32,000 bases of DNA from NCBI RefSeq assembly GCF_000018105.1, contig NC_009926.1, forward strand, positions 300,001 through 332,000, read 5' to 3'. The stretch comes from Acaryochloris marina MBIC11017 (lineage in GTDB: Bacteria > Cyanobacteriota > Cyanobacteriia > Thermosynechococcales > Thermosynechococcaceae). Both the position numbers and the translations under genes were made by a program. A model generated the notes under the pieces. The model was given only the letters and a program-made list of their open reading frames with translations, had not been told where the DNA came from and did no database searches. Shown here piece after piece: positions 17,033 through 32,000 of this stretch (position 1 is the first letter of the stretch; every line of letters starts with the position of its first letter).

Positions 17033-17161
17033 TTGATTGTTCCGGTGATTATGCACTCCCTTCTTCATTCAAGACAATCGATGAGGGCAGACTAATTAAT
17101 ATGGTCACCATTGAGTTGTCCATTCAGCCTAATTGCTTTTTCGATTATCAGGAGTCTATTG

Positions 17162-17470: not shown

Positions 17471-17582
17471 ATAAGAAGGAATATCGTTCCAGGAGAATGA
17501 AGTCTCTGACTAATCTTTCCCTCTCATTAAACTTCGTTCTCTACTTCTACTCAATCAGGACAACATAAAGGAGTCATCATAA

Positions 17583-17798
17583 ATGCAGCATCAATTCATT
17601 CTTTTATGTGTTTTAGGTCCGGTGTTTATTGCACTGAGCGCTTGTAGCAATCCGGCCAATGAACTTTATCAGAAACCCGTTGATCAAGGGCAAAAAGCTA
17701 TCGATAAAGCTGGAAATGTACAGCTAGAAATTGACAAGGCGCAATCAACTCTTGAGCAGCAGGAAAAATCTCTAGCGGGAGAGCAAAACAGTCAGTAA
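17583..17798 (+). CDS. Small lipoprotein
   Basis: ATG is preceded by AAGGAG. The signal peptide carries a lipobox (FIALSAC) and is followed by a hydrophilic Q/K/E-rich mature part. Confidence 0.6.
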   Translation: MQHQFILLCVLGPVFIALSACSNPANELYQKPVDQGQKAIDKAGNVQLEIDKAQSTLEQQEKSLAGEQNSQ

Positions 17799-18099
17799 TC
17801 GTGATTTCAAAATCAAAGAAGCGTGCAGAAGCTCAAATTAAGTAGGATGGGAACCCTATTCGTCTTAGATTGGGATTGTCTCCTCAACAACTTGCCACTT
17901 CGACTGTATCCGCTAAGTCTGCTGCCTCACCGATTCCTCAATCTCAATCTTCCCTCGCCCGAATCGTCCATCGACCTCATCGATGATCGACATCAGGTGC
18001 TTGCGGTAATACCTCAGATCAGGAAAAAATGAACTCGCAGCCAGTAGGGGATAATATAATTGCAAGAATGATTCTAGTCATAGAGAGCATAGAAAAACT

Positions 18100-18612
18100 A
18101 TGGCGATTTCGATGTATAAAGCTTCGGTACCTCCTTTAATTCGTTGCCTCAATAACTTATCTGGGATTCTGGAGAAGGGAGCTGCCCATGCTGAGAATAA
18201 AGGAATCGATCCCAGTGTCCTTATCCATTCCCGGCTCTTTCCTGACATGTTGCCACTTGCCAAGCAAGTTCAGATTGCGTCTGATGTAGCGAGAAAAGGA
18301 GCAGCAAGACTTGCAGGTATAGAAGCACCTTCTATTGAAGACAATGAAGCATCATTTCCAGAACTAATCACCCGGTCAAGTACAACAGTAGATTACCTAA
18401 ATACTTTCACACCGGATCAAATTGATGGTACAGAGGATAAAATCATATCCCTCCCCATCAGAGGTGAAATCTACAAATTCCCTGGCTTACCCTACCTACT
18501 CACTTTTGTTAAACCCAATGTGTACTTCCATGTGACAACTGCTTACAACATCCTCAGGCACTCTGGGGTTGAATTAGGTAAGTTCGACTATCTAGGGAAA
18601 CCAGAGCATTAG
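18100..18612 (+). CDS. DUF1993 domain protein
   Basis: 170 aa. The N-terminus MYKASVPPLIRCLNNLSGILEKGAAHAE..IHSRLFPDMLPL and the C-terminal FHVTTAYNILRHSGVELGKFDYLG match my recollection of DUF1993. Confidence 0.75.
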   Translation: MAISMYKASVPPLIRCLNNLSGILEKGAAHAENKGIDPSVLIHSRLFPDMLPLAKQVQIASDVARKGAARLAGIEAPSIEDNEASFPELITRSSTTVDYLNTFTPDQIDGTEDKIISLPIRGEIYKFPGLPYLLTFVKPNVYFHVTTAYNILRHSGVELGKFDYLGKPEH

Positions 18613-18751
18613 AAAATGCCATCAAAACGACAGGTTTTAACCCACCAGACCGCAGCCGATGCAGATAATCGATTATCAGATCTGTCTCCACGACTTCTGA
18701 GAGGATGCTCTAAAGGTAAGTGCTTGAGAATTAGCTCTCTATAAACTTTAC

Positions 18752-18791
18752 TTATTCTGACAAAAGCTTTTCTAGCTCATCCAATAATTTC
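18752..18791 (-). pseudogene. parB: Displaced 3' end of parB (last 10 codons plus stop), separated from the gene by the IS insertion
   Basis: Removing 18792-20184 (the IS plus one TSD copy) joins frame ..SKIKKL to LDELEKLLSE-TAA, with the stop at 18752-18754. Confidence 0.7.
18784..18791. repeat. Target-site duplication, left copy (ATAATTTC)
   Basis: Identical 8-mer directly abutting both IS ends. 8 bp is the usual ISL3 duplication size. Confidence 0.85.
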
Positions 18792-18812
18792 GGCTCTCTG
18801 GGAATTAGCGTG
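18792..18812 (+). repeat. ISL3 left terminal inverted repeat
   Basis: GGCTCTCTGGGAATTAGCGTG. A GGCTCT.. start is typical of ISL3 ends. Confidence 0.85.
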
Positions 18813-18890
18813 TAGCAGTCCTACATTTAGTGTGTTTCCTTTTTCATCCCTATGGAATGATCTGAGGTAGTACTTCAGAGCAATGGCGTA

Positions 18891-20135
18891 ATGGATAACT
18901 CAATTCGCATCCCGCTCAACCTTCCTGATATTCGAGTTCTAGAGCTATCGAAGACTGAGAGAGGGGATTGGCTCATCAAGATTGAGAGTACGCTTCAAGG
19001 AACAACCTGTCATCAATGCGGACGTGAGATTACTGACCTCCATTGTCATGATCAGCCTTTTCGGATTCGTCACCTGCCATTATTTGAAGTCCCCGTTTAC
19101 TTAGAAATTCGGCCCAAGCGTTATCGATGCAAGTATTGCGATGACCATCCCACAACAACTCAACATTTAGAATGGCACGAACCTCGCAGTCCCAATACAA
19201 AAGCATATGAGCGTTGGCTTCTGCGAATCTTGATCAATTCAACGGTCTCAGATGTTGCCAGAAAACTAGGCGTTAGTGAGGATATCGTCAGTGGAATCAT
19301 TGATCGTTGGATTGCCGCTCAAGTTGACTGGAGCGAATATGCAGACCTCAAAGTTATGGGGATGGATGAGATTTCTCTCAAACGAGGCCATCGTGATTTT
19401 GTGGTTTTGATCACGATTCCTACGACGGATGGGGTGGATATATTGGCAGTTCTAGCCGACCGTAAACAGCAGACAGTGGCAAATTTCCTTCAATCGATTC
19501 CCATTGATTTACGCCAAACCATTGAGCGCGTCTGTACGGACATGTACCAAGGATTTGTCAGTGCAGTCCGAGAACAATTGCCGCAAGCCAAAATTGTCAT
19601 TGACCGCTTTCATGTGACCAAAGCCTATCGTAATTGTGCTGATACGGTTCGTAAACGTGAGGTCAAACGTCTACGACGAGAGCTCTCTAAGCAAGAGTAT
19701 GACAGCATCAAAGGCGCGATGTGGCCTTTTAGAAAACGACCAGAGAATCTGAAAGAGTCAGAGCAACAACTCCTTGAGCGATTGTTTGCTTATTCTCCAC
19801 AACTGAAACAGGCGTACAACCTCCGAGAGAAACTCACGCAGATATTTGAGGGCAGGTACACCAAGCACGGAGCTAAATGTGCCATCCGTGCTTGGTGTAA
19901 ACAAGTACTCAAGAGTGACATCAAGGAATTCGATTGTTTTCTGACCACTATCAATAATTGGATGGACGAGATGACCAACTATTTCCTGGAGGGGTGGACC
20001 AGTGGTTTTGTGGAAGGATTTAATAACCGAGTCAAAGTCTTAAAAAGACGATGCTACGGTATTTTCGATATTGAAAGACTCTTCCAAAGGATTTCTCTTG
20101 ACCTCAATGGGTATCAGACATTCGCTGTGACCTAA
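18891..20135 (+). CDS. ISL3-family transposase
   Basis: 414 aa. The N-terminal zinc finger (CHQCG..CKYC), an HTH segment and a DDE core (..MGMDEISLKRGHRDFVVL.., ..VCTDMYQGF.., ..WTSGFVEGFNNRVKVLKRRCYG) have the ISL3 layout. Confidence 0.9.
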   Translation: MDNSIRIPLNLPDIRVLELSKTERGDWLIKIESTLQGTTCHQCGREITDLHCHDQPFRIRHLPLFEVPVYLEIRPKRYRCKYCDDHPTTTQHLEWHEPRSPNTKAYERWLLRILINSTVSDVARKLGVSEDIVSGIIDRWIAAQVDWSEYADLKVMGMDEISLKRGHRDFVVLITIPTTDGVDILAVLADRKQQTVANFLQSIPIDLRQTIERVCTDMYQGFVSAVREQLPQAKIVIDRFHVTKAYRNCADTVRKREVKRLRRELSKQEYDSIKGAMWPFRKRPENLKESEQQLLERLFAYSPQLKQAYNLREKLTQIFEGRYTKHGAKCAIRAWCKQVLKSDIKEFDCFLTTINNWMDEMTNYFLEGWTSGFVEGFNNRVKVLKRRCYGIFDIERLFQRISLDLNGYQTFAVT

Positions 20136-20155
20136 ACACTATATCTAGCGGCTAC

Positions 20156-20176
20156 CACGCTAATTCCCGGAGAGCC
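20156..20176 (-). repeat. ISL3 right terminal inverted repeat
   Basis: The reverse complement reads GGCTCTCCGGGAATTAGCGTG. Confidence 0.85.
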
Positions 20177-21071
20177 ATAATTTCTTAATTTTACTTCGGT
20201 TTCTTGAGTTATCTAGTACCTTGCTTTTTTGCAATCTTGAACCGATATCTTTACAGCGTTGGGATAAAAGATTTTGAGGGGTTTGTTTATCTTCAGCTTT
20301 CAGAGATTGAATTTCTAGCTTTATATCTTTGAGTGACAATTGTTCCGTAATTGCAGTATTTAAGAGATTGGCCCTTACTTTTTTATCACTGACACGAGCA
20401 ATAGCTTGACACTTTGTATATTCAAGCAAGCCTTGGCGGAGTACCTCTAAAACATCTTCGGGTAGCTTCAATAGTGGAAGGCGGCTAGATCTGAAACTAT
20501 CAATAGAGAAACGGCCCACTTCCTGCATTGTTTGTTGAACAGTATCGAGTTGGGACAAAACGTTTTGTCCCAACTCCTGACCTCGATGCTTCGCGTGATG
20601 AGCTTGATAGAAAAGGGCAATAACTTGCTCCTTATTAAGTTCAAGAACTAGCCCCAATAAATCAAGGATTGCATCAGTCTCTTCTATCGGATTTAGGTCT
20701 TCTCGTTGAAGGTTCTCGATTAGAGCTACATGTACAGCTTCACGATTATTGAGTTGTTTAGCGATTATAGGGACTTCAGTAAGACCTGCCTCTTTAGCAG
20801 CTCGTAAGCGACGCTCTCCAGCCACTAATTCATATTCACCATTCTTAAGAGGTCTTACAAGGAGTGGTTCCAAAACTCCATGCTCTTTAACTGAAGTAAC
20901 CAATTGAGCAAGTTTTTCGGCGTTGAAATACTTTCGAGGTTGGTTTGTAGGTAAATGAATATTCTTGATAGGTATAGACAGTGAGGAGCTTGATTGCCCA
21001 ACAGAGTCGCGATTGAGTATTGCTGCTACATTAGTCAATTTAGGTTTCGGTGTTCTTTTTCGTGACGGCAC
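20160..21071 (-). CDS. parB: ParB/Spo0J-family partition protein with an IS-altered C-terminus
   Basis: GTG start overlaps the parA stop (TAGTG). ParB box LVAGERRLRAAKEAG is present. The last 5 codons and the stop (WLSGN-TAG) are supplied by the TSD and the IS right end. Confidence 0.85.
   Translation of the reverse strand: MPSRKRTPKPKLTNVAAILNRDSVGQSSSSLSIPIKNIHLPTNQPRKYFNAEKLAQLVTSVKEHGVLEPLLVRPLKNGEYELVAGERRLRAAKEAGLTEVPIIAKQLNNREAVHVALIENLQREDLNPIEETDAILDLLGLVLELNKEQVIALFYQAHHAKHRGQELGQNVLSQLDTVQQTMQEVGRFSIDSFRSSRLPLLKLPEDVLEVLRQGLLEYTKCQAIARVSDKKVRANLLNTAITEQLSLKDIKLEIQSLKAEDKQTPQNLLSQRCKDIGSRLQKSKVLDNSRNRSKIKKLWLSGN
20177..20184. repeat. Target-site duplication, right copy (ATAATTTC)
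   Basis: Identical to 18784-18791. Confidence 0.85.
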
Positions 21072-21823
21072 TATAGTGACTCCAGGTTTTCAGCAATAGA
21101 ATGCAAAATAGAATTAGCAGGATGCTTACGGTCATATATCTCTAAAGGAGTATGATTCATAGATGCATCTGCAAAAGCAACTGCTTTTGGTACTGGAGGG
21201 AATACGGGAGCAATTCCACTGAACTGCTCAATCACTGCTTCAAGAATTTCCTTACTCTGAGAAGTTCGATCATGCAAATTTGGAATTACACCCGCAATTT
21301 GTAGGTTTGATGCCACTCCCTCTACCTTTAGTTCGTTGATCGTGCCTAATAATAAATCTAATCCAACAAAACTTTTATACTGAGTCTGCATTGGAATCAG
21401 TATGTGGGTTGAAGCAACTAAGGAAAGTATGCTGAGTACGCCTAGAGTTGGAGGACAATCAATAAGGATGTAATCGTAGTTTGACTCAATTGATGAAATA
21501 GCTCTTTTTAGACGAGTCTCTTTTGCAATTGCAGTAGCAAGTTGTACGTCAGCAGCACTGAGTGACAAATTACTTGGAACTAAGTCCATTTCATGAATAC
21601 CACAGAGAATTGGTAACGTTTTTTTGTCTAAAATACTTTGGGACACAGTTGTTGCTACTTCATAGGAAGAGATACCCATAAAAATTGTCAACGAGGATTG
21701 AGGATCCATATCAACGAGTAAGACACTATGCCCTAACTGCGACAAAGCATATCCCAGGTTCATTGCAAGGGTTGTTTTTCCTGTACCACCAGCTTGGTTA
21801 AAAAAAGAGAAGATCTTTGTCAC
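21071..21823 (-). CDS. parA: ParA-family partition ATPase
   Basis: 250 aa with a deviant Walker A (FNQAGGTGKTTLAMNL), then LLVDMDPQ and ILIDCPP. Confidence 0.9.
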   Translation of the reverse strand: MTKIFSFFNQAGGTGKTTLAMNLGYALSQLGHSVLLVDMDPQSSLTIFMGISSYEVATTVSQSILDKKTLPILCGIHEMDLVPSNLSLSAADVQLATAIAKETRLKRAISSIESNYDYILIDCPPTLGVLSILSLVASTHILIPMQTQYKSFVGLDLLLGTINELKVEGVASNLQIAGVIPNLHDRTSQSKEILEAVIEQFSGIAPVFPPVPKAVAFADASMNHTPLEIYDRKHPANSILHSIAENLESL

Positions 21824-21905
21824 AGAATTAAATGTCGCAACACAGAGACAGTTTACATTTAGTTTTGAATATATGAGAAGTTCAAAGTCTACTTTAGGTT
21901 AATTT

Positions 21906-22103
21906 CTATAAATATTGATCGTGGAAACGCTCGCCACGGGGTACGTTCCAGGGACTGGTATTGGGGCGAGAGTTAGCTAGAGGTATAGCCAGAGTGGCTG
22001 CCCCCGAAACCAGCAAGAGTATAGCGCAATCCAGATCGGCAAGGTCGCCCTCCCAAAACAATACTTTTGCTCCGCGCTCTGCCTTTGCTTTGGGATGTTG
22101 CAT
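21906..22103 (-). CDS. Hypothetical small protein
   Basis: 65-aa ORF whose ATG overlaps the stop of the upstream TPR gene (TAATG), suggesting translational coupling. I recognise no family. Confidence 0.3.
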   Translation of the reverse strand: MQHPKAKAERGAKVLFWEGDLADLDCAILLLVSGAATLAIPLANSRPNTSPWNVPRGERFHDQYL

Positions 22104-22588
22104 TATTGGGCGGGCTTAGCCAAGTGTGGAATCATTTTCACCAAAAGAGCAGCAGATTGATTCTGCGGATCAAGCTGAGTAGCCTTGGTTGCTGATTGCA
22201 AAGCTGCTTGATAATCCTTGAGCATCAATTGGCTTTTAGCAAGATTGAGATGGGCCTCAGCACTCTTTGGCTGTAGTCGGGTGACTTGGGCAAAATCCTC
22301 AGCGGCTTCCTGAAAATTCTTTTCTCCCATGAATAGAACGCCCCGAAGTGCATAGGCTTCAGATAAAGATGGATCAATCTGGATGGCTTGATTAAGTTCT
22401 GCCATCGCTCCCTGAAGATCTTCTTGTTCTAGGCGAGAAATTGCAGCAGTATAGTGTGGGTTCGACTGCGGATTGGGGGCTGCAGTTGCTAGCGGTGATG
22501 GGTGGAGAATAGATATCCCTTGACCCAGGCTGAGTAGCATCGCAGCGATCGCAACCGTGAAATAGACCCGAATTGGTTTATGAAGCAT
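22103..22588 (-). CDS. TPR-repeat protein with an N-terminal signal or anchor
   Basis: 161 aa. A hydrophobic N-terminus (YFTVAIAAMLLSLGQG) is followed by about three TPR-like units (..AIQIDPSLSEAYALRGVLF.., ..VTRLQPKSAEAHLNLAKS.., ..ATQLDPQN). It contains a HIP1 site. Confidence 0.7.
   Translation of the reverse strand: MLHKPIRVYFTVAIAAMLLSLGQGISILHPSPLATAAPNPQSNPHYTAAISRLEQEDLQGAMAELNQAIQIDPSLSEAYALRGVLFMGEKNFQEAAEDFAQVTRLQPKSAEAHLNLAKSQLMLKDYQAALQSATKATQLDPQNQSAALLVKMIPHLAKPAQ
22545..22552. repeat. HIP1 palindrome GCGATCGC
   Basis: Exact octamer. Confidence 0.9.
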
Positions 22589-22631
22589 TCTCTATCCCCC
22601 GAAATTGGTGCTCTTCATTTTACAACTAGCC

Positions 22632-23036
22632 TTAACTCGGTTGTACTGCCCGAAATCGCATCTCTTCAACCCAGACCTCGCTAAACTCCCCAAATCTTTC
22701 TCCAGGTGTGAGGACATGGGTTGCACCCTCCTGCTCTGAAATAAACTCTTGTCGCCATAGCTCCCAGGCTCGGATGGAGGGCAGGCTCAAGTCCGCACAA
22801 TATTCAGCCCAACTGTCTTGCTGGAAGCGGGAAGTACCAATGTGAACGTGCTTGAAATAGACTTCGATCAGACCCCAGTCAACCAATTCTTGAACAAACT
22901 GAGGATGTGCTGACGGTGGCCCCTCATCCTGCTCTATTGGTGCTTCAAGGGAAAGATTGAGCATTTCACCAGAACTTAGCTTGGCAACTCTAAGAATTTC
23001 TAGCTGGATCTGCGAAAGAGAAGGGATAAAAGTCAT
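22632..23036 (-). CDS. Hypothetical protein
   Basis: 134-aa ORF with an ATG start and protein-like composition. I recognise no family. Confidence 0.45.
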   Translation of the reverse strand: MTFIPSLSQIQLEILRVAKLSSGEMLNLSLEAPIEQDEGPPSAHPQFVQELVDWGLIEVYFKHVHIGTSRFQQDSWAEYCADLSLPSIRAWELWRQEFISEQEGATHVLTPGERFGEFSEVWVEEMRFRAVQPS

Positions 23037-23111
23037 TTCTTATCCTCACGCTGATGAAATCCTAACAAACCCAGCCCCTAAGTCTCCTCAGAGGCTAGGT
23101 CTACGGTCTGC

Positions 23112-23768
23112 CTAGGATTTAGCAGCTTCTTGCTTCATCACATCAGCAAGGGTCACCCGCTTGGTTCCAGTCCGACGCTTCCCACTACCACTAGCCACGA
23201 CAGGAGTCGGGTCTTGAGGTACGGCCAACTCATCATCCAGTGGGTCAGGATCAACAGGCGGATCAAGGACCGGGACCGGAGCCTCATCAAGGATAGTCAT
23301 GGATTCTTCAGCCACGGGTTCAGCCTGCCCCAGGTCGTCCGAAACATCAGGAGCCAGATCTTCAGCCTCGACCTCAGAAGTATCCTCGACCGGATTGTCG
23401 GCTAGGAATGCCTGAGTCTGTACCTTGAACCAATCGATAGCCTTTTCATGGAGCTTCCAGTGAGCATCAATCCGATCCGTGAGCTGAGTCTTGATAAGCG
23501 CTTGGACGAACACCGTCTCTTGCTGACAGCCTTTGCGGTAGACAGCCACAGTTCGTTCCTTGACCTCCTCAAAGATGGGGCCGTGCTTCTGGCTCACTTT
23601 GGAAAATCCCCAGGAGCAGAGGGCAGTGAAGTTTTTCCAGCCCTGGATTTCCTTGCGAATGACGAACAAGAAGGCTTTGTTTGCAGCTAGGCCCACTTGG
23701 GTAGCGGCGGTGTCGATGACTTCGTTGTGGTCGGCTTGTTTGACGGTGATGCTTGTAATCAATTTCAT
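23112..23768 (-). CDS. Hypothetical protein with an acidic, Pro-rich, probably disordered C-terminal half
   Basis: I prefer the ATG at 23768 (MKLITSITV), which follows AAAGGA; the ORF opens further upstream at 23822. The C-terminal region is rich in D/E/P and ends in a basic tail (GKRRTGTKR). Confidence 0.5.
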   Translation of the reverse strand: MKLITSITVKQADHNEVIDTAATQVGLAANKAFLFVIRKEIQGWKNFTALCSWGFSKVSQKHGPIFEEVKERTVAVYRKGCQQETVFVQALIKTQLTDRIDAHWKLHEKAIDWFKVQTQAFLADNPVEDTSEVEAEDLAPDVSDDLGQAEPVAEESMTILDEAPVPVLDPPVDPDPLDDELAVPQDPTPVVASGSGKRRTGTKRVTLADVMKQEAAKS

Positions 23769-24103
23769 AAGTGTTGTCCTTTGAATAACGAATAGTGGAT
23801 AGGGCACGACTGGCATGTGCAACTGAGTCGGCCATGTGGATATTGAGAAAATGCAAGGGGGTGTCTTGACCCTCGCGTGAGAATATACCCTCAGTAAAAA
23901 TCAGGCTCGATGGGGAGCTGTGGTGAGGTGGATTTGGAGAAAATACTTTGGGTGGGGGAGTCCCACTGCCTATGTATCAAGATAGCGTGAAAGCCTTGAG
24001 GATACAAGGATTTGGGGATTAGCGTTTCTGATCGGTGGAGGGAGGGAGACTAGGCAAAGCTAATGATTAGTGTGCAGGTGCTAAGAAATGAAGTGGTCGA
24101 TAA

Positions 24104-24742
24104 TTAAGATTCACTGACAGCAGAATCGTGGATGACAAAATGGCTTGTCTGATCAACAGACATCCATCCTTCTTTCCGTAAACTGCTTAGAATACGAGAT
24201 GCCGTCACACGACTAGTGCCCGTTAGATTGGCGATTTGCTGATGGGTAAATCGAACACATATCCTTACCCCTTCGGGAGTCATTTCTCCTACTTCTCTCG
24301 CTAAAAGCAACAACAATTGCTCTATACGCTTTCTTATGAGTCGGTGGTGAACAATGGATAATAACGCTTCAGTCTGCTGAAAACGCCGATTCAGTTGTAT
24401 CAATATTCTCTGAGCCAACAATGGTGAACGCTCAAGCTCAGATTGTTCGATACGCATCAACACGACATCAGTTAGTGCGATAGCCTCATACGCTTTGATT
24501 TGGGTCAATGGAGGTCCAAAGGGCATATCTGGACAGGCCAGTCCCAGGATCGACTCCTGTCCCTCCGAGTCTAAAGTGCAGATTTGAACAACGCCTCGAC
24601 AGACAATCCAAATATCATGGATATGCAGCGGCACGTTGAACCCTTTACTGAAGGCATAGGTTTGGCGACCTTGATATTCGTCCTCAAGCATTTGACGCCA
24701 GTTTTGGTTTGAGGATGCTGGTAGTTCCTGTGTCTTAAACAT
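24104..24742 (-). CDS. Crp/Fnr-family transcriptional regulator
   Basis: 212 aa with an N-terminal cNMP-binding-like beta-roll and a C-terminal HTH (FTHQQIANLTGTSRVTASRILSSLRKEGWM). Confidence 0.85.
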   Translation of the reverse strand: MFKTQELPASSNQNWRQMLEDEYQGRQTYAFSKGFNVPLHIHDIWIVCRGVVQICTLDSEGQESILGLACPDMPFGPPLTQIKAYEAIALTDVVLMRIEQSELERSPLLAQRILIQLNRRFQQTEALLSIVHHRLIRKRIEQLLLLLAREVGEMTPEGVRICVRFTHQQIANLTGTSRVTASRILSSLRKEGWMSVDQTSHFVIHDSAVSES

Positions 24743-24888
24743 CTATGCATAACCCCGAATACTTAGCTATCAGGTCGAATAAGGAGTTTGACGCAAACTT
24801 TTCCTTTTCTGCTCAATATTCGGCCTCTAAATACGCTCACCAAAATCTATCTAGTAACCAGCATTCAAAGCTTCTAGGGTTACCGAAG

Positions 24889-25371
24889 TCAATGAGACCA
24901 TTCCCCAATACGACAAACTTCAAACGCGATATTTCCAAACAAGACTAGGGGTACTAAAAGGCCCTCAGTACAATAGCCCTGATTGGGAATTTGACGAAGA
25001 GGGTAACGCTGATGCCACTCCGCTAGATATTGCCTAAATTCCATAAAGCAAATCAACCAAACGGAGTTGCGAGGGGGGACATAATAGGCCAACACATCGG
25101 CCTCAGATGCATAGGCCCAGCCTTGAACCGCTCTGACATCTACGCTGATCGTTTCGATGAATGCATTGCCCGTCCTACCCGCTGTCATATCTGCTTTATA
25201 CTCGACCGACATCCATGACCCGTCTGGTGCTTGAAACCAGCGGTCTATCCCCTGTCGCTGCTCTTGACGAGAGGCAGGTTCAATCCAGAAGTACTGCTGA
25301 AAATACGCATCGAGGGTCTGTTCATGATGTGTCCCGATCACAAACTGCTGCTCAAAATCATAGGCTGGCAT
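24889..25371 (-). CDS. Hypothetical protein, possible PD-(D/E)XK nuclease fold
   Basis: 160 aa. The motif arrangement GIDRWF...MSVEYKAD fits D-x(13)-E-x-K. This is a motif-only assignment. Confidence 0.45.
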   Translation of the reverse strand: MPAYDFEQQFVIGTHHEQTLDAYFQQYFWIEPASRQEQRQGIDRWFQAPDGSWMSVEYKADMTAGRTGNAFIETISVDVRAVQGWAYASEADVLAYYVPPRNSVWLICFMEFRQYLAEWHQRYPLRQIPNQGYCTEGLLVPLVLFGNIAFEVCRIGEWSH

Positions 25372-25421
25372 GGGGTGCCCCCTCAGCGGTGTGGAAGGAT
25401 GCGCTGACCTGGCATCAGGTC

Positions 25422-25441
25422 TATATTCCCATTGTGAACGA
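25422..25441 (-). promoter_or_regulatory. Conserved upstream motif P1 (plus strand TATATTCCCATTGTGAACGA)
   Basis: Identical at 18 of 20 positions to 26060-26079. It lies 50 nt upstream of the 25371 start and contains a TGTGA half-site. Confidence 0.5.
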
Positions 25442-25524
25442 TGACCTGGATTATGGTTAGTTAGCTGAGTAGAGATACCAGAAATGCCCTGGATAGGGAG
25501 TTAGAAATCTGAGCTGAAATTCAT

Positions 25525-26010
25525 TCATGGATTTAAAGCATTGCCCCCAACATCACTGAGACCCCAAAAGACCTGATAGTGCAACCAAAACCCTGATACG
25601 GCCAGTATAATCACACTCGCCAATGCACACAGTAAGAACACATTCAGATCTGTGTCTTTTCCTACAAAGACGTGAGAATTCCTATCCCATCGTCGGAGCA
25701 AGGCGGGGTCCAGATGGCACCGTAGATAGCATTGCTTCTGACGCTGACTCCAAAAGCGATGGTCAAGGGGATACCCTAATTCTTCGGGGTAAAAGTGAAC
25801 TAAGGCATCTTCAAAAGTCTCTCCCACCTCTAAGCCCACATACAAAAAGTTTTGTTGCACTCGCGTGACTTTAGTGGGTCTATTATCCCAATAGCGCAGC
25901 AATACCCAATCTCCCTCTATAAAAGCATCAGAGCCCATGACTTCGCCCATAAGCAGGGGATCAAGTTGGGGAGTGGGAATCAGTTTTGCATAGCCATTGC
26001 GTTCATTCAT
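25525..26010 (-). CDS. Hypothetical tail-anchored membrane protein
   Basis: I prefer the ATG at 26010, which follows GAGGAG by 6 nt (MNERNGYAK..); the ORF opens at a TTG at 26106. There is a single C-terminal TM helix (LNVFLLCALASVIILAVSGFWL). Confidence 0.5.
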   Translation of the reverse strand: MNERNGYAKLIPTPQLDPLLMGEVMGSDAFIEGDWVLLRYWDNRPTKVTRVQQNFLYVGLEVGETFEDALVHFYPEELGYPLDHRFWSQRQKQCYLRCHLDPALLRRWDRNSHVFVGKDTDLNVFLLCALASVIILAVSGFWLHYQVFWGLSDVGGNALNP

Positions 26011-26059
26011 TGCTATCTCCTCAGCGACTAGAGGGGATGCGCTAGCCTGAATTAAGGCG

Positions 26060-26079
26060 TATATTTCTATTGTGAACGA
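26060..26079 (-). promoter_or_regulatory. Conserved upstream motif P2 (plus strand TATATTTCTATTGTGAACGA)
   Basis: Paralog of P1, 49 nt upstream of the 26010 start. Weaker similarity continues for about 20 nt on the high-coordinate side. Confidence 0.5.
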
Positions 26080-26184
26080 ATTTCTAGATTTTGTTGATGG
26101 GGCCAAGCAGCAGAATCAGGATGATTATTGTAGAAAGCCACAAACCACACCAGGGACTCTGATAGGGCTAATGAACTAACCTTG

Positions 26185-26397
26185 CTACACACTACGACTG
26201 GCATCTCCTAGCAAGAAAACATGGATGAACTGCTCTGCAAATTGTCGTGGTATCACCCAATAAGCACAGCCTACGATCAGATAAGCCTCTGGTTCGCTAG
26301 TGAAATAATAGTCGATGTAAACATTGCACTTGTTCGCCACTTCATAATAAGAGCAACCCAATTTGTAATAGTCTGGTGGCTCCACTTCTAAATTCAC
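26185..26397 (-). CDS. Hypothetical protein, possibly the 3' part of a frameshifted gene
   Basis: 70-aa ORF with a GTG start. Its frame stays open upstream to 26478 without a start codon. A 28-codon ORF with a good RBS (26448-26534) sits just upstream in another frame. Confidence 0.35.
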   Translation of the reverse strand: MNLEVEPPDYYKLGCSYYEVANKCNVYIDYYFTSEPEAYLIVGCAYWVIPRQFAEQFIHVFLLGDASRSV

Positions 26398-26447
26398 AAA
26401 CCCTTCAATGGTGACCTCTGATAGAACGAAGCACTGGATTTCAATCT

Positions 26448-26534
26448 TCAGATTACCCGGCCCAGAGATTCCATGCCGACTTGAGTCTCAGGCTTCAGAT
26501 CTACTCGCCACTCCTCAATTTCTTCGCTCTTCAT
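26448..26534 (-). CDS. Small ORF (28 aa), possibly the 5' part of a frameshifted gene
   Basis: ATG is preceded by GGAGGT at 8 nt. The peptide is MKSEEIEEWRVDLKPETQVGMESLGRVI. Confidence 0.25.
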   Translation of the reverse strand: MKSEEIEEWRVDLKPETQVGMESLGRVI

Positions 26535-26549
26535 CCACTGTTACCTCCA

Positions 26550-27320
26550 TCATCCAAACACTGGAAACTCCCGCACTCGAAGATCCTGCGGCCATTCCTC
26601 GGCATCCCCACCCTTCGCAGAACGGAGCTTGGGAACCCCCACGGGCTTGCTGCCAAGCTGCTTGATAAACACGGGGATTTCTGCTGATTTGCATTGGTCT
26701 CGAATGGAGCGAATCCAAGTAACATCACAAGGCCGAGCGCTTGGGCCAGACTCACCCCCGGTGATACACCAATTCGCGGGAAGGGCGCTTAGATCCAAGG
26801 GTTCGAGCAAGGGTTCACAACTTAGGAAAATGCCGCCGACTTTCTTCTGTAGCTTTGCCAGTTTGGGAATGACGACATCGCTTTCTCGCTGGGTGCAGAT
26901 GCTTTGGCCCAGCCAGACTTGAGAAGGAACTTGTCTGAACTGGAGAAACTTAGCCGCGACATCCACCCGCTTGGTCAGTAGCAACCAGATCAGGTTTGGG
27001 GTTTTCTCGATGACCTCATCAAACAGATCTAACCGCCAATTAATCAGGTCATCCCGGTCCTCAAACACATCGGCCAAGGACGCACAGAAGACCGTTTCAG
27101 TGACTCCTCGCTCTGCAGCTTTGCGGTTCCATTTATGAGGTTGCTTCCAGTAGGATTCTGATGTGCGAGATCTGGTTCCATCTTTGCCCCACTTCACGCG
27201 ATGATATCGTTTGTCCATCATCGCCTCAGCGTAGCAATTCAAACAGCCAGGACTGTTGTGTGCGCAGCCGATCCAGGAATTGAATGTGTGGTGGGTCCAC
27301 TCAATTTTGCTATTCTCCAT
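26550..27320 (-). CDS. DUF5131 / phage Gp37-Gp68 family protein
   Basis: 256 aa. The N-terminus MENSKIEWTHHTFNSWIGCAHNSPGCLNCYAE (C-x6-C-x2-C) and the later ..WLLLTKR.. and ..ITGGESGP.ARP.. fit the family as I recall it. Confidence 0.8.
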   Translation of the reverse strand: MENSKIEWTHHTFNSWIGCAHNSPGCLNCYAEAMMDKRYHRVKWGKDGTRSRTSESYWKQPHKWNRKAAERGVTETVFCASLADVFEDRDDLINWRLDLFDEVIEKTPNLIWLLLTKRVDVAAKFLQFRQVPSQVWLGQSICTQRESDVVIPKLAKLQKKVGGIFLSCEPLLEPLDLSALPANWCITGGESGPSARPCDVTWIRSIRDQCKSAEIPVFIKQLGSKPVGVPKLRSAKGGDAEEWPQDLRVREFPVFG

Positions 27321-27759
27321 TGGTTAACTCCATCAAAATTTTCAATGTTTCAGGTCGGACATCTCGGAGTCCCTGAGACCCGCGATAGGGAATCGGCTCA
27401 GGCAGTGGAACGATGCTTCCTAACTGCCAAGCAAAGCGCCCCAGTTGCCAGCAACCCACGGCCAACTCCAGCTCAGTCTGTCTGCTGATCAGACTTGAAT
27501 CCATCCGGGGACAATCCACCAGATCCGAAATAGCCACGATGCAACCGAGCGGGTAATCACATGGGTTGCGAGGCACCTTGCCATCCGTCAGATTATTGAC
27601 CTGGCCCACTATCGCTTGCCCGTCTAAATTGATAGGTCGCTTGGCTGCATGAATCGCCAACTTACCCCGGTAGCGAGTGCCCCATGATCGAGTCTCAAAT
27701 TCCTTGAAGTTCAGGGCAATGAAGGTCGCCCAAGGTTGCCAGAGGGTGATGATTTTCAT
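27310..27759 (-). CDS. ASCH-domain protein
   Basis: 149 aa. The N-terminus MKIITLWQPWATFIALNFKEFETRSWGTRYRGKLAIHAAK is the typical phage-type ASCH N-terminus. Its end overlaps the DUF5131 start by 11 nt and its start overlaps the upstream stop (ATGA). Confidence 0.7.
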   Translation of the reverse strand: MKIITLWQPWATFIALNFKEFETRSWGTRYRGKLAIHAAKRPINLDGQAIVGQVNNLTDGKVPRNPCDYPLGCIVAISDLVDCPRMDSSLISRQTELELAVGCWQLGRFAWQLGSIVPLPEPIPYRGSQGLRDVRPETLKILMELTNGE

Positions 27760-28016
27760 CGTTCCGCCTCCATTGGCATTCCTATAGCTTCATGCATTTT
27801 TTCTGCAATCCCCCAGCAGTCATCGCAAATTTCAAAGTAATCGTCATCAGCACCCTTGCAATACGGTTGAAGATAGCCGCAGGACTGACATTCGTAATAT
27901 TGGCCCGCTTCGCAGCCCAGGCAAAGAGACTTACTGCGACTACTCAGGCATCCCAAGGGTTGCAGTTGCATGATGCCTCGACCTTGCTGCAAAAGATTCC
28001 ACACCTGCTTTTTCAT
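27756..28016 (-). CDS. Cys-rich small protein (putative zinc ribbon)
   Basis: 86 aa with ATG preceded by GGAGGTG. It has eight Cys including CxxC pairs (CLGC, CQSC, CDDC). Confidence 0.55.
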   Translation of the reverse strand: MKKQVWNLLQQGRGIMQLQPLGCLSSRSKSLCLGCEAGQYYECQSCGYLQPYCKGADDDYFEICDDCWGIAEKMHEAIGMPMEAER

Positions 28017-28160
28017 TGCTTCACCTCCAAATATGAATTTTCAAAAAGTCTTATGTCGGGCCTGCATTCTCCCCAAATTCCCCGGCAGGCAGAGTCCAGG
28101 CAATCGGGTTAACGAGGATGGGCACTGTATAGTCTTGGCTCAGGGCTAACCAGAACTGGT

Positions 28161-28703
28161 TTACCCTTCTTGCGCTCGAAGTTGCTTTTCCCGTTCGATT
28201 GCAGGATTCAGCAGTAAATCTTGGAGATTTAAGGTACAACCTTCCTCACTCGGCAGCGGACAAACACCGAAATAGTGAGGCAACCGCACCAGCTCTGACT
28301 GGATGAAATCAAACTGCAAACTGAAGATGGAGTACTTTTTCTGTGCCCGTACCTGCATCCGTCGAATGCGTTCTCGATACTTCCGCGCCATCGGCCAAGG
28401 TCGATAGGGGCGACTGGGCTTGCTGGAGATCGGGCCAGAGCGAATGGCTTGGGGAATTACAATACCGTTTGCCTTGTGGTACGCCTTCACCGCAGCTCCC
28501 ATTTGTGGGGTGGGCACTTCCTGTAAACGCTGCCAGGTTTGCTGGAACATCTGGTTGGCGATTGCCAGTATCTCCGCTGCTTCCTTGCGGAGCTGCGCTA
28601 ACATCCGTTCAAAGGCTTGGCGTTGTTTAGTGGTCTTGACTGGACCAGATTTAGGGAGCTGGAGAGGGAGAGCCGTTTGGACAGCAATCATGATCAACCT
28701 CAT
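28161..28703 (-). CDS. Hypothetical basic protein
   Basis: 180-aa ORF. The first ATG overlaps the upstream stop (ATGA). An alternative ATG at 28691 has GAGG 7 nt upstream. I recognise no family and see no C5-MTase motifs IX or X. Confidence 0.5.
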   Translation of the reverse strand: MRLIMIAVQTALPLQLPKSGPVKTTKQRQAFERMLAQLRKEAAEILAIANQMFQQTWQRLQEVPTPQMGAAVKAYHKANGIVIPQAIRSGPISSKPSRPYRPWPMARKYRERIRRMQVRAQKKYSIFSLQFDFIQSELVRLPHYFGVCPLPSEEGCTLNLQDLLLNPAIEREKQLRAQEG

Positions 28704-29533
28704 TCAAATAATGACAATTGCGGCTGAGGATCTGAATCCTTACTTTTCCTTTTGGGCTTTTTCGCTGGACTCGTTTGATGAATGCCCCCAAATGCCTCTG
28801 CTTGCTGATGCAAGGTTTTGCGAAGTGCATCATACGTGGAAAAGCCCCCATCTGCGATTACCCGGCAAAAGGCATCGATCACGGGGACACTTTCAGGGGT
28901 CACCATACTGACAATTCCTGGTACGTTCTCCATAACAAAAGTTTTGGGTCGGATCTCCAAAATCATGCGGGCGAATTCAAAGATCAGACTATTTCGCGGA
29001 TCAAGAACTTGTCGCTTACCTGCGATTGAAAAGCCTTGGCAAGGTGGGCCACCAAAGACACAATCGACTTCACCAACTCCCACGCCGATGGAATCTAGGA
29101 TCTGCTGGCCCGTGAGCTGACGAACATCCCCCAGCCAGAAATGCTCCACACCGGGACGCTCTGGGGGGCGATGCTGGCCCGACAGGAAGCATTGAGCAAT
29201 GCCACCGTCCTTATCCATCTGCATGATTTTCTCTAGCAGTTTCGTAAACCTGGCCTCATCCTCATCTACGACAAAATTCATATCCAGGGGATAAGCTCCC
29301 AGATTAGCGAGATAGGTTAGTGCTGCATTGGCATCCTTTTCAACGGCGGCTACGACCTGAAACCCACCCTCGATCATCCCCAGACTGAAACCGCCACAGC
29401 CACAAAACAGGTCAATGGCGATTGGAACGTCATACTCTCGTTTGGGGAGCAATAGCCCAGACTGTCGTTGATGATAGGTGGATTGCTGAGGGAGGTAGAG
29501 GCCATCCCCGCTTTGGACAAACAAATCGTTCAT
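28700..29533 (-). CDS. DNA (cytosine-5)-methyltransferase-like protein with motifs I-VI only, no TRD and no motifs VIII-X
   Basis: ATG at 29533 is preceded by AGGAGG. Present are motif I IDLFCGCGGFSLG, motif II AAVEKD, motif IV GGPPCQGFS, motif V DPRNSLIFEF and motif VI FVMENVPG. The protein then ends after about 70 aa in a K-rich tail and PQLSLFE. Confidence 0.75.
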   Translation of the reverse strand: MNDLFVQSGDGLYLPQQSTYHQRQSGLLLPKREYDVPIAIDLFCGCGGFSLGMIEGGFQVVAAVEKDANAALTYLANLGAYPLDMNFVVDEDEARFTKLLEKIMQMDKDGGIAQCFLSGQHRPPERPGVEHFWLGDVRQLTGQQILDSIGVGVGEVDCVFGGPPCQGFSIAGKRQVLDPRNSLIFEFARMILEIRPKTFVMENVPGIVSMVTPESVPVIDAFCRVIADGGFSTYDALRKTLHQQAEAFGGIHQTSPAKKPKRKSKDSDPQPQLSLFE

Positions 29534-29546
29534 GTCCGTCAACCTC

Positions 29547-29762
29547 CTAACAACACAACTTGAGACGGACAGCAGGGCGCAAATCCGTGATTTTGACCGT
29601 GGTGAAGTTCTTGCTCCACTTCCCGGATTTGTCCTTGGCAATCATCAGAACGTGCTGTCTGGAGACTGTGGAGAACACCTTGAGACGGGTGCCGTTTTGT
29701 CTCCTGAGCGTTCCGAGGAAGTACACCAGATGATGCTGAGGCGAGTACACTAACTTGCTCAT
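29547..29762 (-). CDS. Hypothetical small protein
   Basis: ATG at 29762 is preceded by GGAGGA (MSKLVYSPQHH..), giving 71 aa. It ends 13 nt before the MTase-like start. Confidence 0.45.
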   Translation of the reverse strand: MSKLVYSPQHHLVYFLGTLRRQNGTRLKVFSTVSRQHVLMIAKDKSGKWSKNFTTVKITDLRPAVRLKLCC

Positions 29763-30108
29763 GGAATTTTCCTCCAATATTCAATTAATTAATTTGGGGT
29801 GTGGCTACCCTTCAATTTCGAGATAGGTAACGGCAAGCGAACCCTCAATATCTGCAGTGCATTTTCTAAAGCAGATGCAATCACCGTCTGGTTCTAGAAA
29901 ATATTCCATCCAGTACTCATGGCGAACCTGATGCGATTCAGCGGGACAGTCTGGATTGACGGCCTGAGCAAACGAAACTGGATCTAAAGTGCCAATGGTT
30001 CAAGGCATGGCATGATTTATCTCCTGTTTGAGTGATGCGATTTTTTGAGAGCTTCGATAGTTGTTCCAAAGTGAGTCTTGGGCTGACATCGGCCTAGACA
30101 ACCACGTC

Positions 30109-30393
30109 TTACGCCCTTGATGAGAGAGCGGCAGTGCGAGGAGTAAGAGTTACAACTTTTACTCGTTGCTCGAAGCGTTCCTTTCCTTCCAGTCGCCGCA
30201 ACCTTCTGCTCAACTCTGGTGTGGGGTATATTCCTCGTGATTGCCCACAGTCCCGGCAAATCCACCAAGTATGGCTTCCACCAGTACGATGCAGAGGAAT
30301 GATTTGGTAGGCAATTGCCACTTTATACTCGTGACAATCGCAGCATTGTTTAACGGACGGCTGATAGAGCCGCCGCACGTTACGAGTAAACAT
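30109..30393 (-). CDS. Hypothetical zinc-ribbon protein
   Basis: 94 aa with ATG preceded by AGGAG. Two CxxC pairs are present (CCDC ... CRDC). Confidence 0.5.
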   Translation of the reverse strand: MFTRNVRRLYQPSVKQCCDCHEYKVAIAYQIIPLHRTGGSHTWWICRDCGQSRGIYPTPELSRRLRRLEGKERFEQRVKVVTLTPRTAALSSRA

Positions 30394-30564
30394 GGTACGT
30401 TGCTCCTAGGATGTTTATTGGTTATTAGCTGAGGCGGTTCATGCTCAGAAAGAATCGCCTCTTTATTCGTCTAATTGCTTGGAAACACAAGATTTATAAA
30501 CACCAGTCAAATTATTTTGTGGTCGTGGTAAATTCTGAGGCGACTGTGAATACAAATCACTCTT

Positions 30565-30620
30565 AAGGGCGACACCACACCAACTCCTAGTCGCCCTTTC
30601 TCATACCAAAATCTGTTTTG
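30565..30620. repeat. Hairpin element A (AAGGGCGAC-N16-GTCGCCCTT plus conserved flank)
   Basis: Perfect 9-bp stem at 30565-30573 and 30590-30598. It is a paralog of 31177-31230 and begins 7 nt 3' of the DUF4326 gene. Confidence 0.6.
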
Positions 30621-30626
30621 ATTGGC

Positions 30627-31022
30627 TCAGGATAGCTCCAACTGCTGGGGTTCCGGGTGTTTCCATACAAGGTAGGACTTAATAACATCGCCGTGGCAGG
30701 CCAGGGGAGCGCACCAACAGAGCAACTTCACTTCTAGCATGGCCTCTAGTTTGGCTAGCTCTACCATCACTTGAGGACGACTGGGACGCTTCCACATACC
30801 TGAGACCTGGACGTTGTACTTGTCAGCCAGATCTGGGACCACATCAATGGGATTGGCCCCCAGGTTGGCAACTTCATGGAGGTATTCACGGAATGCAGCG
30901 ATGACTGCCATGCGCTCGGATTCTTGGAACATGTGAAAGGGATTGCCAAGGACGCTGGCACGGTCGCAACGGTAGCCCTCAACATTGCGATTATGGCGAA
31001 GATTAACGACGGTGATGTTCAT
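30627..31022 (-). CDS. DUF4326 domain protein
   Basis: I prefer the ATG at 31022 (MNITVVNLRH..). The segments GNPF and LLCWCAPLACHGDVI match the DUF4326 pattern I recall. Confidence 0.7.
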   Translation of the reverse strand: MNITVVNLRHNRNVEGYRCDRASVLGNPFHMFQESERMAVIAAFREYLHEVANLGANPIDVVPDLADKYNVQVSGMWKRPSRPQVMVELAKLEAMLEVKLLCWCAPLACHGDVIKSYLVWKHPEPQQLELS

Positions 31023-31114
31023 GATATATTTGCCATTGAACGAGATAAGCTTTACGGCTTTAGGCAGGGCGTTTTTGAACACGAGAACTGCCCTTTACTA
31101 ATTCAATTAGGTCG

Positions 31115-31157
31115 ATCTAGCACGGCTTCAAACGCAAATTTTAAGACTGTGCTAGAT
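31115..31157. repeat. 9-bp perfect inverted repeat (ATCTAGCAC-N25-GTGCTAGAT)
   Basis: Read directly from the sequence. It lies about 95-135 nt upstream of the DUF4326 start. Confidence 0.5.
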
Positions 31158-31176
31158 TTCATGAAGATTCTGTTTT

Positions 31177-31230
31177 AGGGCGACCCTAGTCAACTCCAGG
31201 CCGCCCTTTCTCGTCAGCAAAATTGTTCAG
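31177..31230. repeat. Hairpin element B (imperfect paralog of element A)
   Basis: AGGGCG(A)CC ... GG(C)CGCCCT stem, with a CAACTCC-containing loop and CCCTTTCTC flank shared with element A. It lies about 35 nt 3' of the ssb reading frame end. Confidence 0.5.
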
Positions 31231-31264
31231 AAGAGTCACTTTTGGGGGTTCTTTCTCATCACCC

Positions 31265-31702
31265 CTAGAAAGGAATATTGTCATCAACAAATGAACCACC
31301 ACCAGCTTTTGACGCTACTGGTGGCTTCACCTGTCTCTGGGGCTGAGGCGGGGTATGGGTCGGGGCTGGTGCAACAGTGTTGCTCGATGCCTGCTCCCCT
31401 TGCTTGGAACCCAGCAGTTCAACCCGTTGGCAGCGAACCACCACCTTTGAGCGATTGCCGCCTGAGTTCCTGTCAACCTAGCGCTCTTGCAACAGGGAAC
31501 CACTGACCCCAATTTGCGACCCTTTCTGGCAGTACTGCCCAATCACCTCAGCGGTCTTTTCCCAAGCCTCTATCTCGAAAAAGTCAGTCTCGTCTTTGGT
31601 GCGGTTGATGGCAAGGTGGAATTTGGCAATGACTTTGCCAAACTCGAAATAGCGCATCTGTGGATCTGCAGTGAGTCTTCCAATAAGATTTACGGTATTC
31701 AT
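31265..31702 (-). pseudogene. ssb: Single-stranded DNA-binding protein gene with one in-frame TAG (31478-31480)
   Basis: ATG is preceded by AGGAG. The N-terminal OB fold reads MNTVNLIGRLTADPQMRYF...GSQIGVSGSLLQER. A TAG follows, and the same frame continues VDRNSGGNRSKVVVRCQRVELLG..., then a P/Q-rich linker, then GGGSFVDDNIPF-stop, the canonical SSB acidic tip. Confidence 0.8.
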
Positions 31703-31947
31703 ATATAGACTCCTAATTTTTCAATATTTTTAAGTGCTGTGTGCCAATTAGGGACTGAGTTTAATGCCCTCTCACATCACACTTTTTCTTTCAAAGCAGA
31801 ACGCTGGATAAGTTCAAATTTCCAACTCCAGCAAGACGTGATGAGTTTTTTCAGATTGTTGTCATCACTTATCTCGATTGGGGCATCCTCACTAATGGAG
31901 TCATGAGAACAGAGAGCTTCTCCAACTCCACCACGTAAATAGACCTC

Positions 31948-31980
31948 GACAGCTTCGGTAACGAGAAGCTGTCTTTTTTT
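31948..31980 (+). terminator. Rho-independent terminator-like hairpin, plus-strand orientation
   Basis: GACAGCTTC-GGTAACGA-GAAGCTGTC (perfect 9-bp stem) is followed by TTTTTTT. No annotated plus-strand gene lies upstream of it. Confidence 0.55.
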
Positions 31981-32000
31981 GTCTCAAACTCCCCTCAAAC

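Follow-up and report, generated by a model that had tools for sequence, protein, structure and literature searches.

A conserved gene array of Acaryochloris plasmids, partly decayed in strain MBIC11017, as a candidate plasmid establishment module

The DNA analysed in this study is a stretch of 32,000 nucleotides from Acaryochloris marina MBIC11017 (NCBI RefSeq assembly GCF_000018105.1, contig NC_009926.1, positions 300,001 to 332,000 of the forward strand), which is called the window below and in which positions are counted from the first letter. A block of genes at 24889-31702 of this window is a partly decayed copy of a conserved unidirectional accessory array that belongs to the backbone of Acaryochloris MOBF/MPF_T megaplasmids. 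The array itself is interpreted here, with a probability of roughly 0.55, as a leading-region-type module for plasmid establishment. All credible open reading frames (ORFs) of the block are on the minus strand and run head to tail, as a preliminary description of the locus had stated, and 12 genes are supported instead of the about 14 counted at that time. Gene starts were adjusted by annotated homologs and ribosome-binding sites, and sites of the GGAG type were observed upstream of most block genes. The start/stop overlaps reported earlier were exact (ATGA at 28700-28703 and at 27756-27759, and 11 nt at 27310-27320). Since gaps of 13-346 nt were found at the remaining junctions, or of 13-331 nt with another choice of ORF starts, tight translational coupling, previously ascribed to the block as a whole, is confined to two sub-operons, one made up of orf71, a methyltransferase (MTase) gene and orf180, and the other of the genes for Cys86, an ASCH-domain protein and a DUF5131 protein.

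HIP1 sites were counted as 0 in the block and 5 in the remaining 25.2 kb of the window, in agreement with the earlier count, but with 1.35 sites expected in the block this absence is within chance (P(0)=0.26), and the GC content was 0.50 in the block versus 0.46 in the rest of the window. HIP1 depletion and GC content were therefore rejected as signs of a foreign origin. Restriction-site avoidance was also rejected, because common restriction-type words (4-6-mers) showed no clear depletion in the block relative to the rest of the window.

The first gene of the block is an ssb pseudogene (31265..31702, minus strand). Its earlier assignment to the single-stranded DNA-binding proteins (SSBs) is supported for the N-terminus (OB fold, 31481-31702), which matches PF00436 at 3e-21, but the frame is broken by an in-frame TAG at 31478-31480, after residue 74, where a conserved Trp codon has been changed by a single substitution (TGG to TAG). 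The identical stop was present in an independently assembled 2.2-kb Logan contig. The C-terminal part of the gene ends in the SSB tail DDNIPF, and, apart from the stop, the two halves share 74% identity with the intact SSB of plasmid pMB04. An OB fold and an acidic C-terminal tail in one frame are thus not found in the window copy, which is a nonsense mutant. About 250 nt upstream of ssb, on the opposite strand, an intrinsic-terminator-like hairpin with a 9-bp stem and T7 (31948..31983, plus strand) marks the upstream edge of the visible array. The sole plus-strand ORF before this hairpin is a 55-aa GTG ORF at 31739-31906, and the hairpin could terminate an antisense or small transcript. In the spacer between ssb and the DUF4326 gene, an 18-nt imperfect inverted repeat was observed at 31115-31157 (78% complementary, 7-nt loop); this spacer and the next one folded slightly better than shuffled sequences (z about -2.3).

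The DUF4326 gene (30627..31022, minus strand) encodes 131 aa from an ATG chosen in line with homolog lengths, and its ORF extends upstream to a GTG at 31082. The family call was confirmed by matches to PF14216 (2e-16) and phrog_464. DUF4326 belongs to a rhodanese-phosphatase-like clade for which Iyer et al. (PMC9503650) predicted a role in processing the phosphates of ADP-ribose derivatives. It is followed by a 94-aa zinc-ribbon-like protein (30109..30393, minus strand) with two CxxC knuckles (CCDC ... CRDC), which is kept after DUF4326 in related plasmids (7 loci), and by orf71 (29547..29762, minus strand), a small conserved hypothetical gene preceding a slot in which methyltransferase genes are found. 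In the window this slot holds the gene for a short C5-MTase-like protein of 277 aa with PF00145-type motifs I, IV, V and VI (28700..29533, minus strand; MTase277 below) and orf180 (28161..28703, minus strand), which is coupled to it through an ATGA.

The second sub-operon begins with the gene for Cys86 (27756..28016, minus strand), a protein of 86 aa with three CxxC pairs; direct reading of this protein and of the 94-aa protein showed paired CxxC motifs in both, so the earlier mention of two Cys-rich proteins holds. Cys86 is ATGA-coupled to the ASCH-domain (PUA-like) protein (27310..27759, minus strand), which phmmer matched, at 4e-11, to the human ASC-1/TRIP4 ASCH domain of solved structure, and which also matched phrog_3193 at 6e-32. 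The window ASCH protein itself had no Pfam hit, but relatives of it from a full HMMER scan passed the PF04266 threshold, and the ASCH call is sound on these grounds. The DUF5131 (Gp37/Gp68) protein (26550..27320, minus strand) matches PF07505 at 3e-61. The cluster-like Cys motif described for it was verified, with C19, C26 and C29 (C-x6-C-x2-C) being invariant or nearly so in 45 homologs, and its spacing differs from the canonical CxxxCxxC. The window protein weakly matches the NCBIfam model 'radical SAM mobile pair protein A', and the family is listed by SFLD as a radical-SAM subgroup (PMC9477430); DUF5131 is accordingly described here as radical-SAM-like by sequence. In a literature search for DUF5131, Gp37/Gp68 and PF07505, only the SFLD listing and no biochemical activity was found.

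Downstream of DUF5131 lies a frameshifted remnant of a conserved 115-135-aa gene (26185..26534, minus strand), in which the frame changes near 26469 as judged against the 115-aa genes of plasmids pREC2 and pMB03. The next gene encodes a 161-aa protein (25525..26010, minus strand), 50% identical to its pREC3 homolog, in which a single C-terminal hydrophobic helix was recognized by direct reading, in keeping with the tail-anchored type named earlier. The last gene of the block encodes a protein of 160 aa (24889..25371, minus strand) whose likeness to PD-(D/E)XK nucleases, also noticed before, was strengthened by alignment and by a structure model. D43, E57 and K59 are invariant in 47 aligned sequences, and the AF2 model, with a mean predicted local distance difference test score (pLDDT) of 94.4, had as its best Foldseek match in the PDB the PD-(D/E)XK homing endonuclease I-Ssp6803I (E 5e-4, probability 1.0), followed by weaker matches to RecU/PrfA (E 0.12) and an EcoRV-type restriction endonuclease (E >= 0.4). 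The block had been placed 3 kb from a parAB locus, but it is contiguous with parAB, as the same-strand run continues through genes for a Crp/Fnr regulator (24104-24742), hyp218 (23112-23822), hyp134 (22632-23036), a TPR protein (22103-22588) and ParA (21071-21823) to ParB (20160-21071), all on the minus strand.

The window is plasmid DNA, not prophage. It is collinear with plasmid pREC3 of A. marina MBIC10699, where the cargo order is the same from the DUF928 gene to parAB, and the two match with 96.8% nucleotide identity across 69% of positions 13000-32000 of the window; for the block itself only mosaic nucleotide matches of 80-89% were obtained, all to Acaryochloris plasmids. No nucleotide match was found in 50,697 phage records, and capsid, tail, portal, terminase, lysis and integrase genes were absent both from the 32-kb window and from the annotated flanks of related arrays, which were examined over up to 20 kb. 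The earlier observation that capsid, tail, terminase, integrase and relaxase genes are lacking in the window was reproduced on re-checking, and an ordinary prophage, which had been considered as the competing origin of these genes, is not what was found here. The window contains one ISL3 transposase gene.

The same ordered array recurred in three other Acaryochloris strains, at nine or more loci distributed over at least eight plasmids, so that the genes do co-occur outside the source strain, a point on which the earlier proposal depended. These loci, found by reading the annotation around matches and by phmmer of window proteins against locus ORFs, are pREC3 copy 1, pREC3 copy 2, pREC2, pMB03, pMB01, S15 unnamed43, S15 unnamed8 and S15 unnamed10, with a partial array in pMB04. 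The consensus order starts with sigma70 / HU / AbrB and, further on, DUF932 or DUF945, a divergent helix-turn-helix gene, a small gene and DUF3768; it continues with small ORFs with or without a HAD phosphatase, DUF4326, the zinc-ribbon gene, orf71, a variable slot, ASCH and DUF5131; and it ends with hyp115-135, sometimes the tail-anchored protein and the small nuclease, then Crp/Fnr, hyp218 and parAB. In the relatives, the array proper begins behind the segment of DUF932, helix-turn-helix and DUF3768 genes. A genome-contig search with DUF4326 returned one 4-kb contig of a metagenome-assembled genome, unrelated to the replicon.

Three types of content were distinguished in the variable slot, namely the short C5-MTase and orf180 (the window, and pREC3 copy 1, where hyp376 and MT-A70 follow), orf180 and Cys86 (pMB01 and S15 unnamed43), and a PAPS-reductase-like gene, a 483-aa Dcm and MT-A70 (pMB03, S15 unnamed8, S15 unnamed10 and pREC3 copy 2). 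In the third type, hyp376 is usually located between Dcm and MT-A70 and is missing from pREC3 copy 2. The two arrays of pREC3 (NZ_AP026078.1), at 42.7-52.6 kb and 112.3-121.0 kb, are on the same strand and each has its own parAB, which suggests that pREC3 is a cointegrate of two plasmid backbones.

The Cys86-ASCH-DUF5131 trio, which had been proposed to act as a coupled unit, did not hold together across the related loci. The complete trio was found in the window, pMB01 and S15 unnamed43, of which the latter two are near-identical, while MT-A70 stands in place of Cys86 at five other loci. In pREC2, DUF5131 occurs without ASCH; in pREC3 copy 1 it directly follows MT-A70, again without ASCH; and in pMB04, Cys86 adjoins ssb without ASCH or DUF5131. 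ASCH adjoins DUF5131 of either of two subtypes, which share only 42% identity, and this adjacency holds within Acaryochloris and in a few phage contigs.

Beyond these plasmids, DUF5131 had 5,189 homologs at E <=1e-10, was present in >581 viral contigs and 348 plasmids, and usually lies in the early regions of prophages. At 80 viral DUF5131 loci, phmmer detected a relative of ASCH at 2, a relative of MTase277 at 3 and SSB at 1, and when the neighbours of these loci were clustered no family was present in more than 13, the recurrent ones including an unannotated family of 240 aa at 8 loci, N6/N4 MTases at 7 and C5 MTases at 6. Fusions of DUF5131 with DUF4326 (P0024) and of ASCH with a Dam-type N6-adenine methyltransferase (P0384) were found, and no ASCH-DUF5131 fusion occurred among ten multidomain ASCH relatives. 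The two fusions hint that families adjoining each other in the array are functionally linked. A loose functional link to DNA methylation is plausible, and an obligate three-protein machine of Cys86, ASCH and DUF5131 is not supported.

To place the array relative to conjugation genes, relaxase positions were taken from the annotation of pREC2 and pREC3; tblastn with a MobF fragment of pREC4 was uninformative, being swamped by enterobacterial TraI. In plasmids of the MOBF type, F and R388 among them, oriT precedes the relaxase operon, and the recipient first receives the DNA that lies on the opposite side of oriT; the putative oriT positions of pREC2 and pREC3 were assigned by analogy with F and R388. 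In pREC2, genes for the type IV secretion system (T4SS) and the coupling protein are followed by mobF at 24.6-30.8 kb (minus strand), and the array starts from 49.3 kb (plus strand). In pREC3, mobF is at 138.4-142.4 kb (plus strand) and array copy 2 at 121.0-112.3 kb (minus strand), and in both plasmids a small accessory gene is present upstream of mobF. The arrays of pREC2 and pREC3 copy 2 lie 17-18 kb from the intergenic region upstream of mobF, on the non-relaxase side, and are transcribed away from it; orientation away from the putative oriT was observed for pREC2 (array plus, mobF minus) and for both pREC3 copies (array minus, mobF plus). By analogy, the arrays would lie in the leading half of the plasmids and be encoded on the transferred strand. 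The relaxases of pREC2 and pREC3 are only 40% identical and alignment of their putative oriT regions revealed no detectable nucleotide similarity, indicating that this arrangement of array and mobF is old.

Samuel et al. 2024 (PMC11541004) report that leading regions encode SSBs, orphan MTases and anti-defence proteins on the strand that is transferred, and SSBs and orphan MTases so placed count among their hallmark families. The array resembles the leading regions of F, R388 and pESBL (PMC11541004) in being unidirectional and on the non-relaxase side of the putative oriT, in carrying ssb, orphan DNA MTases and many small proteins without assigned function, and in its mosaic content between related plasmids. 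A relative of the array is also linked with ArdC-N and ParB_N, since a metagenomic contig encodes ArdC-N, ParB_N, KilA-N, MT-A70, a short C5-MTase (63% identity to that of the window) and DUF5131 in one direction. The array differs from those leading regions in lying 17-18 kb or more from the putative oriT and not directly beside it, and in its setting, a cyanobacterial host with plasmids of 140-400 kb. It thus resembles known leading or establishment regions of conjugative plasmids and would be a fairly ordinary example of them from an under-studied host.

Several observations weigh against an establishment module. Neither an oriT nor a relaxase or T4SS gene is present in the window itself. 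The array syntenic with that of the window, pREC3 copy 1, is separated from mobF by about 85 kb, although it shares its strand with copy 2. The 17-18 kb spacer between the putative oriT and the array is of mixed orientation in pREC2 and pREC3, and several array-carrying plasmids are typed as non-mobilizable. No window protein matched known anti-restriction, anti-CRISPR, SOS-inhibitor or anti-defence families (ArdA, ArdC, KlcA, PsiB, Acr), in which the array again departs from the leading regions named above. No Frpo-like promoter hairpin for single-stranded DNA stood out in ten intergenic regions (best z-score -2.35), and consensus scans did not reveal one either, although this is a weak test. 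Two genes of the block are disrupted, ssb by a nonsense codon and a second gene by a frameshift, which indicates that selection on the window copy is relaxed. As to other signals, promoter-like sites in the block were no more frequent than in shuffled sequences, and no Rfam family matched at E of 0.1 or better. The earlier proposal of an establishment or anti-defence cassette is partly supported, as far as a plasmid array with leading-type orientation is concerned, but no known anti-restriction or anti-defence family speaks for its anti-defence part.

An explanation independent of conjugation is a dedicated DNA-modification operon, in which the MTase-like, Cys-rich, ASCH and DUF5131 proteins would form a single pathway and install or read a non-canonical base on plasmid DNA. 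It would agree with the overlapping start/stop codons that join Cys86, ASCH and DUF5131, with the persistence of the ASCH-DUF5131 pair across the divergent DUF5131 subtypes (42% identity), with MT-A70 directly before ASCH in five loci, with the ASCH-Dam and DUF5131-DUF4326 fusions, with the conserved three-Cys motif of DUF5131 and with the PAPS-reductase-like gene in the same slot of relatives. It is nevertheless considered unlikely, because only 2 of the 80 viral DUF5131 contigs have an ASCH relative and no neighbour family reaches more than 13 of them, DUF5131 is without ASCH in pREC2 and follows MT-A70 without ASCH in pREC3 copy 1, Cys86 is apart from both partners in pMB04, none of the ten multidomain ASCH relatives is fused to DUF5131, and the literature gives no biochemical activity for DUF5131. 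Membership of an anti-phage defence system of the host or the plasmid, related to the PADLOC candidate systems PDC-M30 and PDC-M41, is very improbable. These systems share with the array a DUF5131-type B component, the window protein matching PDC-M41B at 5e-46 and PDC-M30B at 5e-45, and nuclease and MTase-like genes are nearby. No A component, however, was present among ten block proteins, the other PADLOC matches were only to generic MTase models, no restriction-type partner was found for the MTase, the array is located in a plasmid backbone rather than a defence island, and DUF5131 is abundant in phage genomes themselves.

The abundance of these families in phages raises the further explanation that the block is a remnant of the early region of a phage or phage-plasmid, captured by the plasmid and carrying passive selfish 'moron' genes without collective function. 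Every annotated family of the block is typical of phage early regions, DUF5131 being known from >581 viral contigs and from prophage early regions; ASCH, DUF5131, DUF4326 and the MTase have PHROG matches, and in prophages the short C5-MTase adjoins ParB_N or DUF4326. The early regions of temperate phages likewise contain small genes arrayed head to tail, with DUF5131, ASCH, DUF4326 and orphan MTases among their products, and both the mosaic gene content between copies and the two pseudogenes would suit passive cargo. The array differs from them in its place next to parAB in a plasmid backbone, in the absence of structural, lysis, terminase and integrase genes in the window or up to 20 kb of annotated flank, and in the lack of any nucleotide match in the phage records. 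Its fixed backbone position between transfer and partition genes, despite relaxases of only 40% identity, argues for retention as a plasmid module, and a phage remnant is thus judged to have a rather low probability.

The gene in the methyltransferase slot had been called a truncated C5-MTase. MTase277 keeps motifs I (FxGxGG), IV (PCQ), V and VI (ENV), but lacks a target recognition domain (TRD) as well as motifs VIII, IX and X, so that the complete PF00145 set of motifs I-X with a TRD is not present; the protein ends ~75 residues after ENV, and its PF00145 profile match, which is above the Pfam threshold, covers only positions up to about 119 of 324. The same parts are absent from all 120 closest of >7,000 relatives, which are 246-303 aa long with one of 363 aa. 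These relatives are about 50% identical across distant phyla and are found in phage or plasmid early regions. The incomplete motif set was thus described correctly, but MTase277 is a member of a widespread conserved short family and not a one-off local truncation.

In an AlphaFold model (pLDDT 82), MTase277 can be superposed on the N-terminal portion of the HhaI, HaeIII and DNMT catalytic domains, the fold match spanning about 190 of 327 HhaI residues. The family shares with the canonical enzymes M.HhaI and M.HaeIII the invariant motifs I, IV, V and VI and the N-terminal catalytic fold, and differs from them in its length of 246-303 aa and in that no conserved neighbour gene supplies the missing motifs. 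The split enzyme M.AquI is divided between motifs VIII and IX, whereas the short C5-MTase ends after motif VI. The neighbouring orf180 was rejected as the missing C-terminal half, as it has no similarity to full-length Dcm and no Pfam match, no homolog of it lies beside distant short MTases, and it also occurs without the short MTase (pMB01 and an S15 plasmid). The 483-aa Dcm of pMB03 was rejected as a full-length ortholog of MTase277, only motif I being alignable.

At residues 272-276 of MTase277, following a disordered basic linker (pLDDT <50), the sequence QLSLF (codons 28706-28720) was found, succeeded by E. The consensus of bacterial beta-clamp-binding motifs is QL[SD]LF, and the tail of the short C5-MTases resembles such a motif in sequence. 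The pattern Q..[LMIFV]F was present in the last 25 residues of 74 of the 120 relatives and in the body of only 6, compared with 5 of 324 control proteins from three families, and the full-length Dcm of sister arrays has no QLSLF-type motif. A literature search revealed no report of a clamp-binding-like tail on a bacterial cytosine methyltransferase. It is tentatively proposed that these proteins form a half-size C5-MTase-like family of plasmids and phages that, with motifs I-VI only, might be tethered to the replisome by QLSLF and, without a TRD of their own, modify or covalently engage cytosines of newly replicated mobile-element DNA, as a bacterial counterpart of DNMT1-PCNA coupling. The likeness to DNMT1-PCNA tethering consists of a cytosine-MTase-type enzyme with a short linear motif of the sliding-clamp-binding kind; the differences are a bacterial QL[SD]LF motif in place of a PIP box and the lack of half of the MTase domain. 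As a separate observation, hyp376 of the sister arrays (375-376 aa, no Pfam match) ends in KQLSLV, which is also clamp-binding-motif-like; it lies at 16807-17934 of locus L005 in pMB03 and has homologs in pREC3, S15 unnamed8 and S15 unnamed10.

Elsewhere in the window, the ISL3-family transposase gene (ISAcma10-like) is located at 18891-20135 beside parB, and a copy with 99.9% identity disrupts mobF, the relaxase gene, in pREC4. A DUF928 protein is encoded at 66-1037 and a 1215-aa WD40-repeat protein at 4897-8544, whose pREC3 ortholog is annotated as NB-ARC, STAND-type. In pREC3 the WD40-repeat and DUF928 genes neighbour that of a CHAT-domain protein, and they are typical cyanobacterial conflict or signalling genes without relation to the array.

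From gene content, conservation, position and orientation, which were directly observed, we infer the following biochemical roles and timing of expression for an establishment module. The array products would act on the plasmid's own DNA on cell entry or during replication. SSB would coat single strands, and the orphan MTase-like enzymes of the swappable slot types would mark plasmid DNA against restriction, with the short C5-MTase possibly riding the replisome via its clamp-binding-like tail. ASCH, DUF5131, the PD-(D/E)XK nuclease and DUF4326 may contribute accessory activities directed at nucleic acid or ADP-ribose, as used against host defences. Paralogous arrays on co-resident plasmids could complement the decayed copy of the window; one strain harbours both pREC2 and pREC3, the latter with two array copies of its own.

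An unusually large part of the Acaryochloris genome is located on megaplasmids, several of which reside together in a cell, the maintenance and exchange of which are poorly described, and a conserved array with a swappable MTase slot would offer a concrete handle on plasmid establishment and restriction evasion in cyanobacteria. It would also extend the leading-region concept beyond Proteobacteria and Firmicutes. Phages and plasmids abound in DUF5131, ASCH, DUF4326 and short C5-MTase proteins, the roles of which are predicted only, and among these the short C5-MTase family with its clamp-binding-like tail is the most interesting by-product of this analysis and provides a specific, testable lead.

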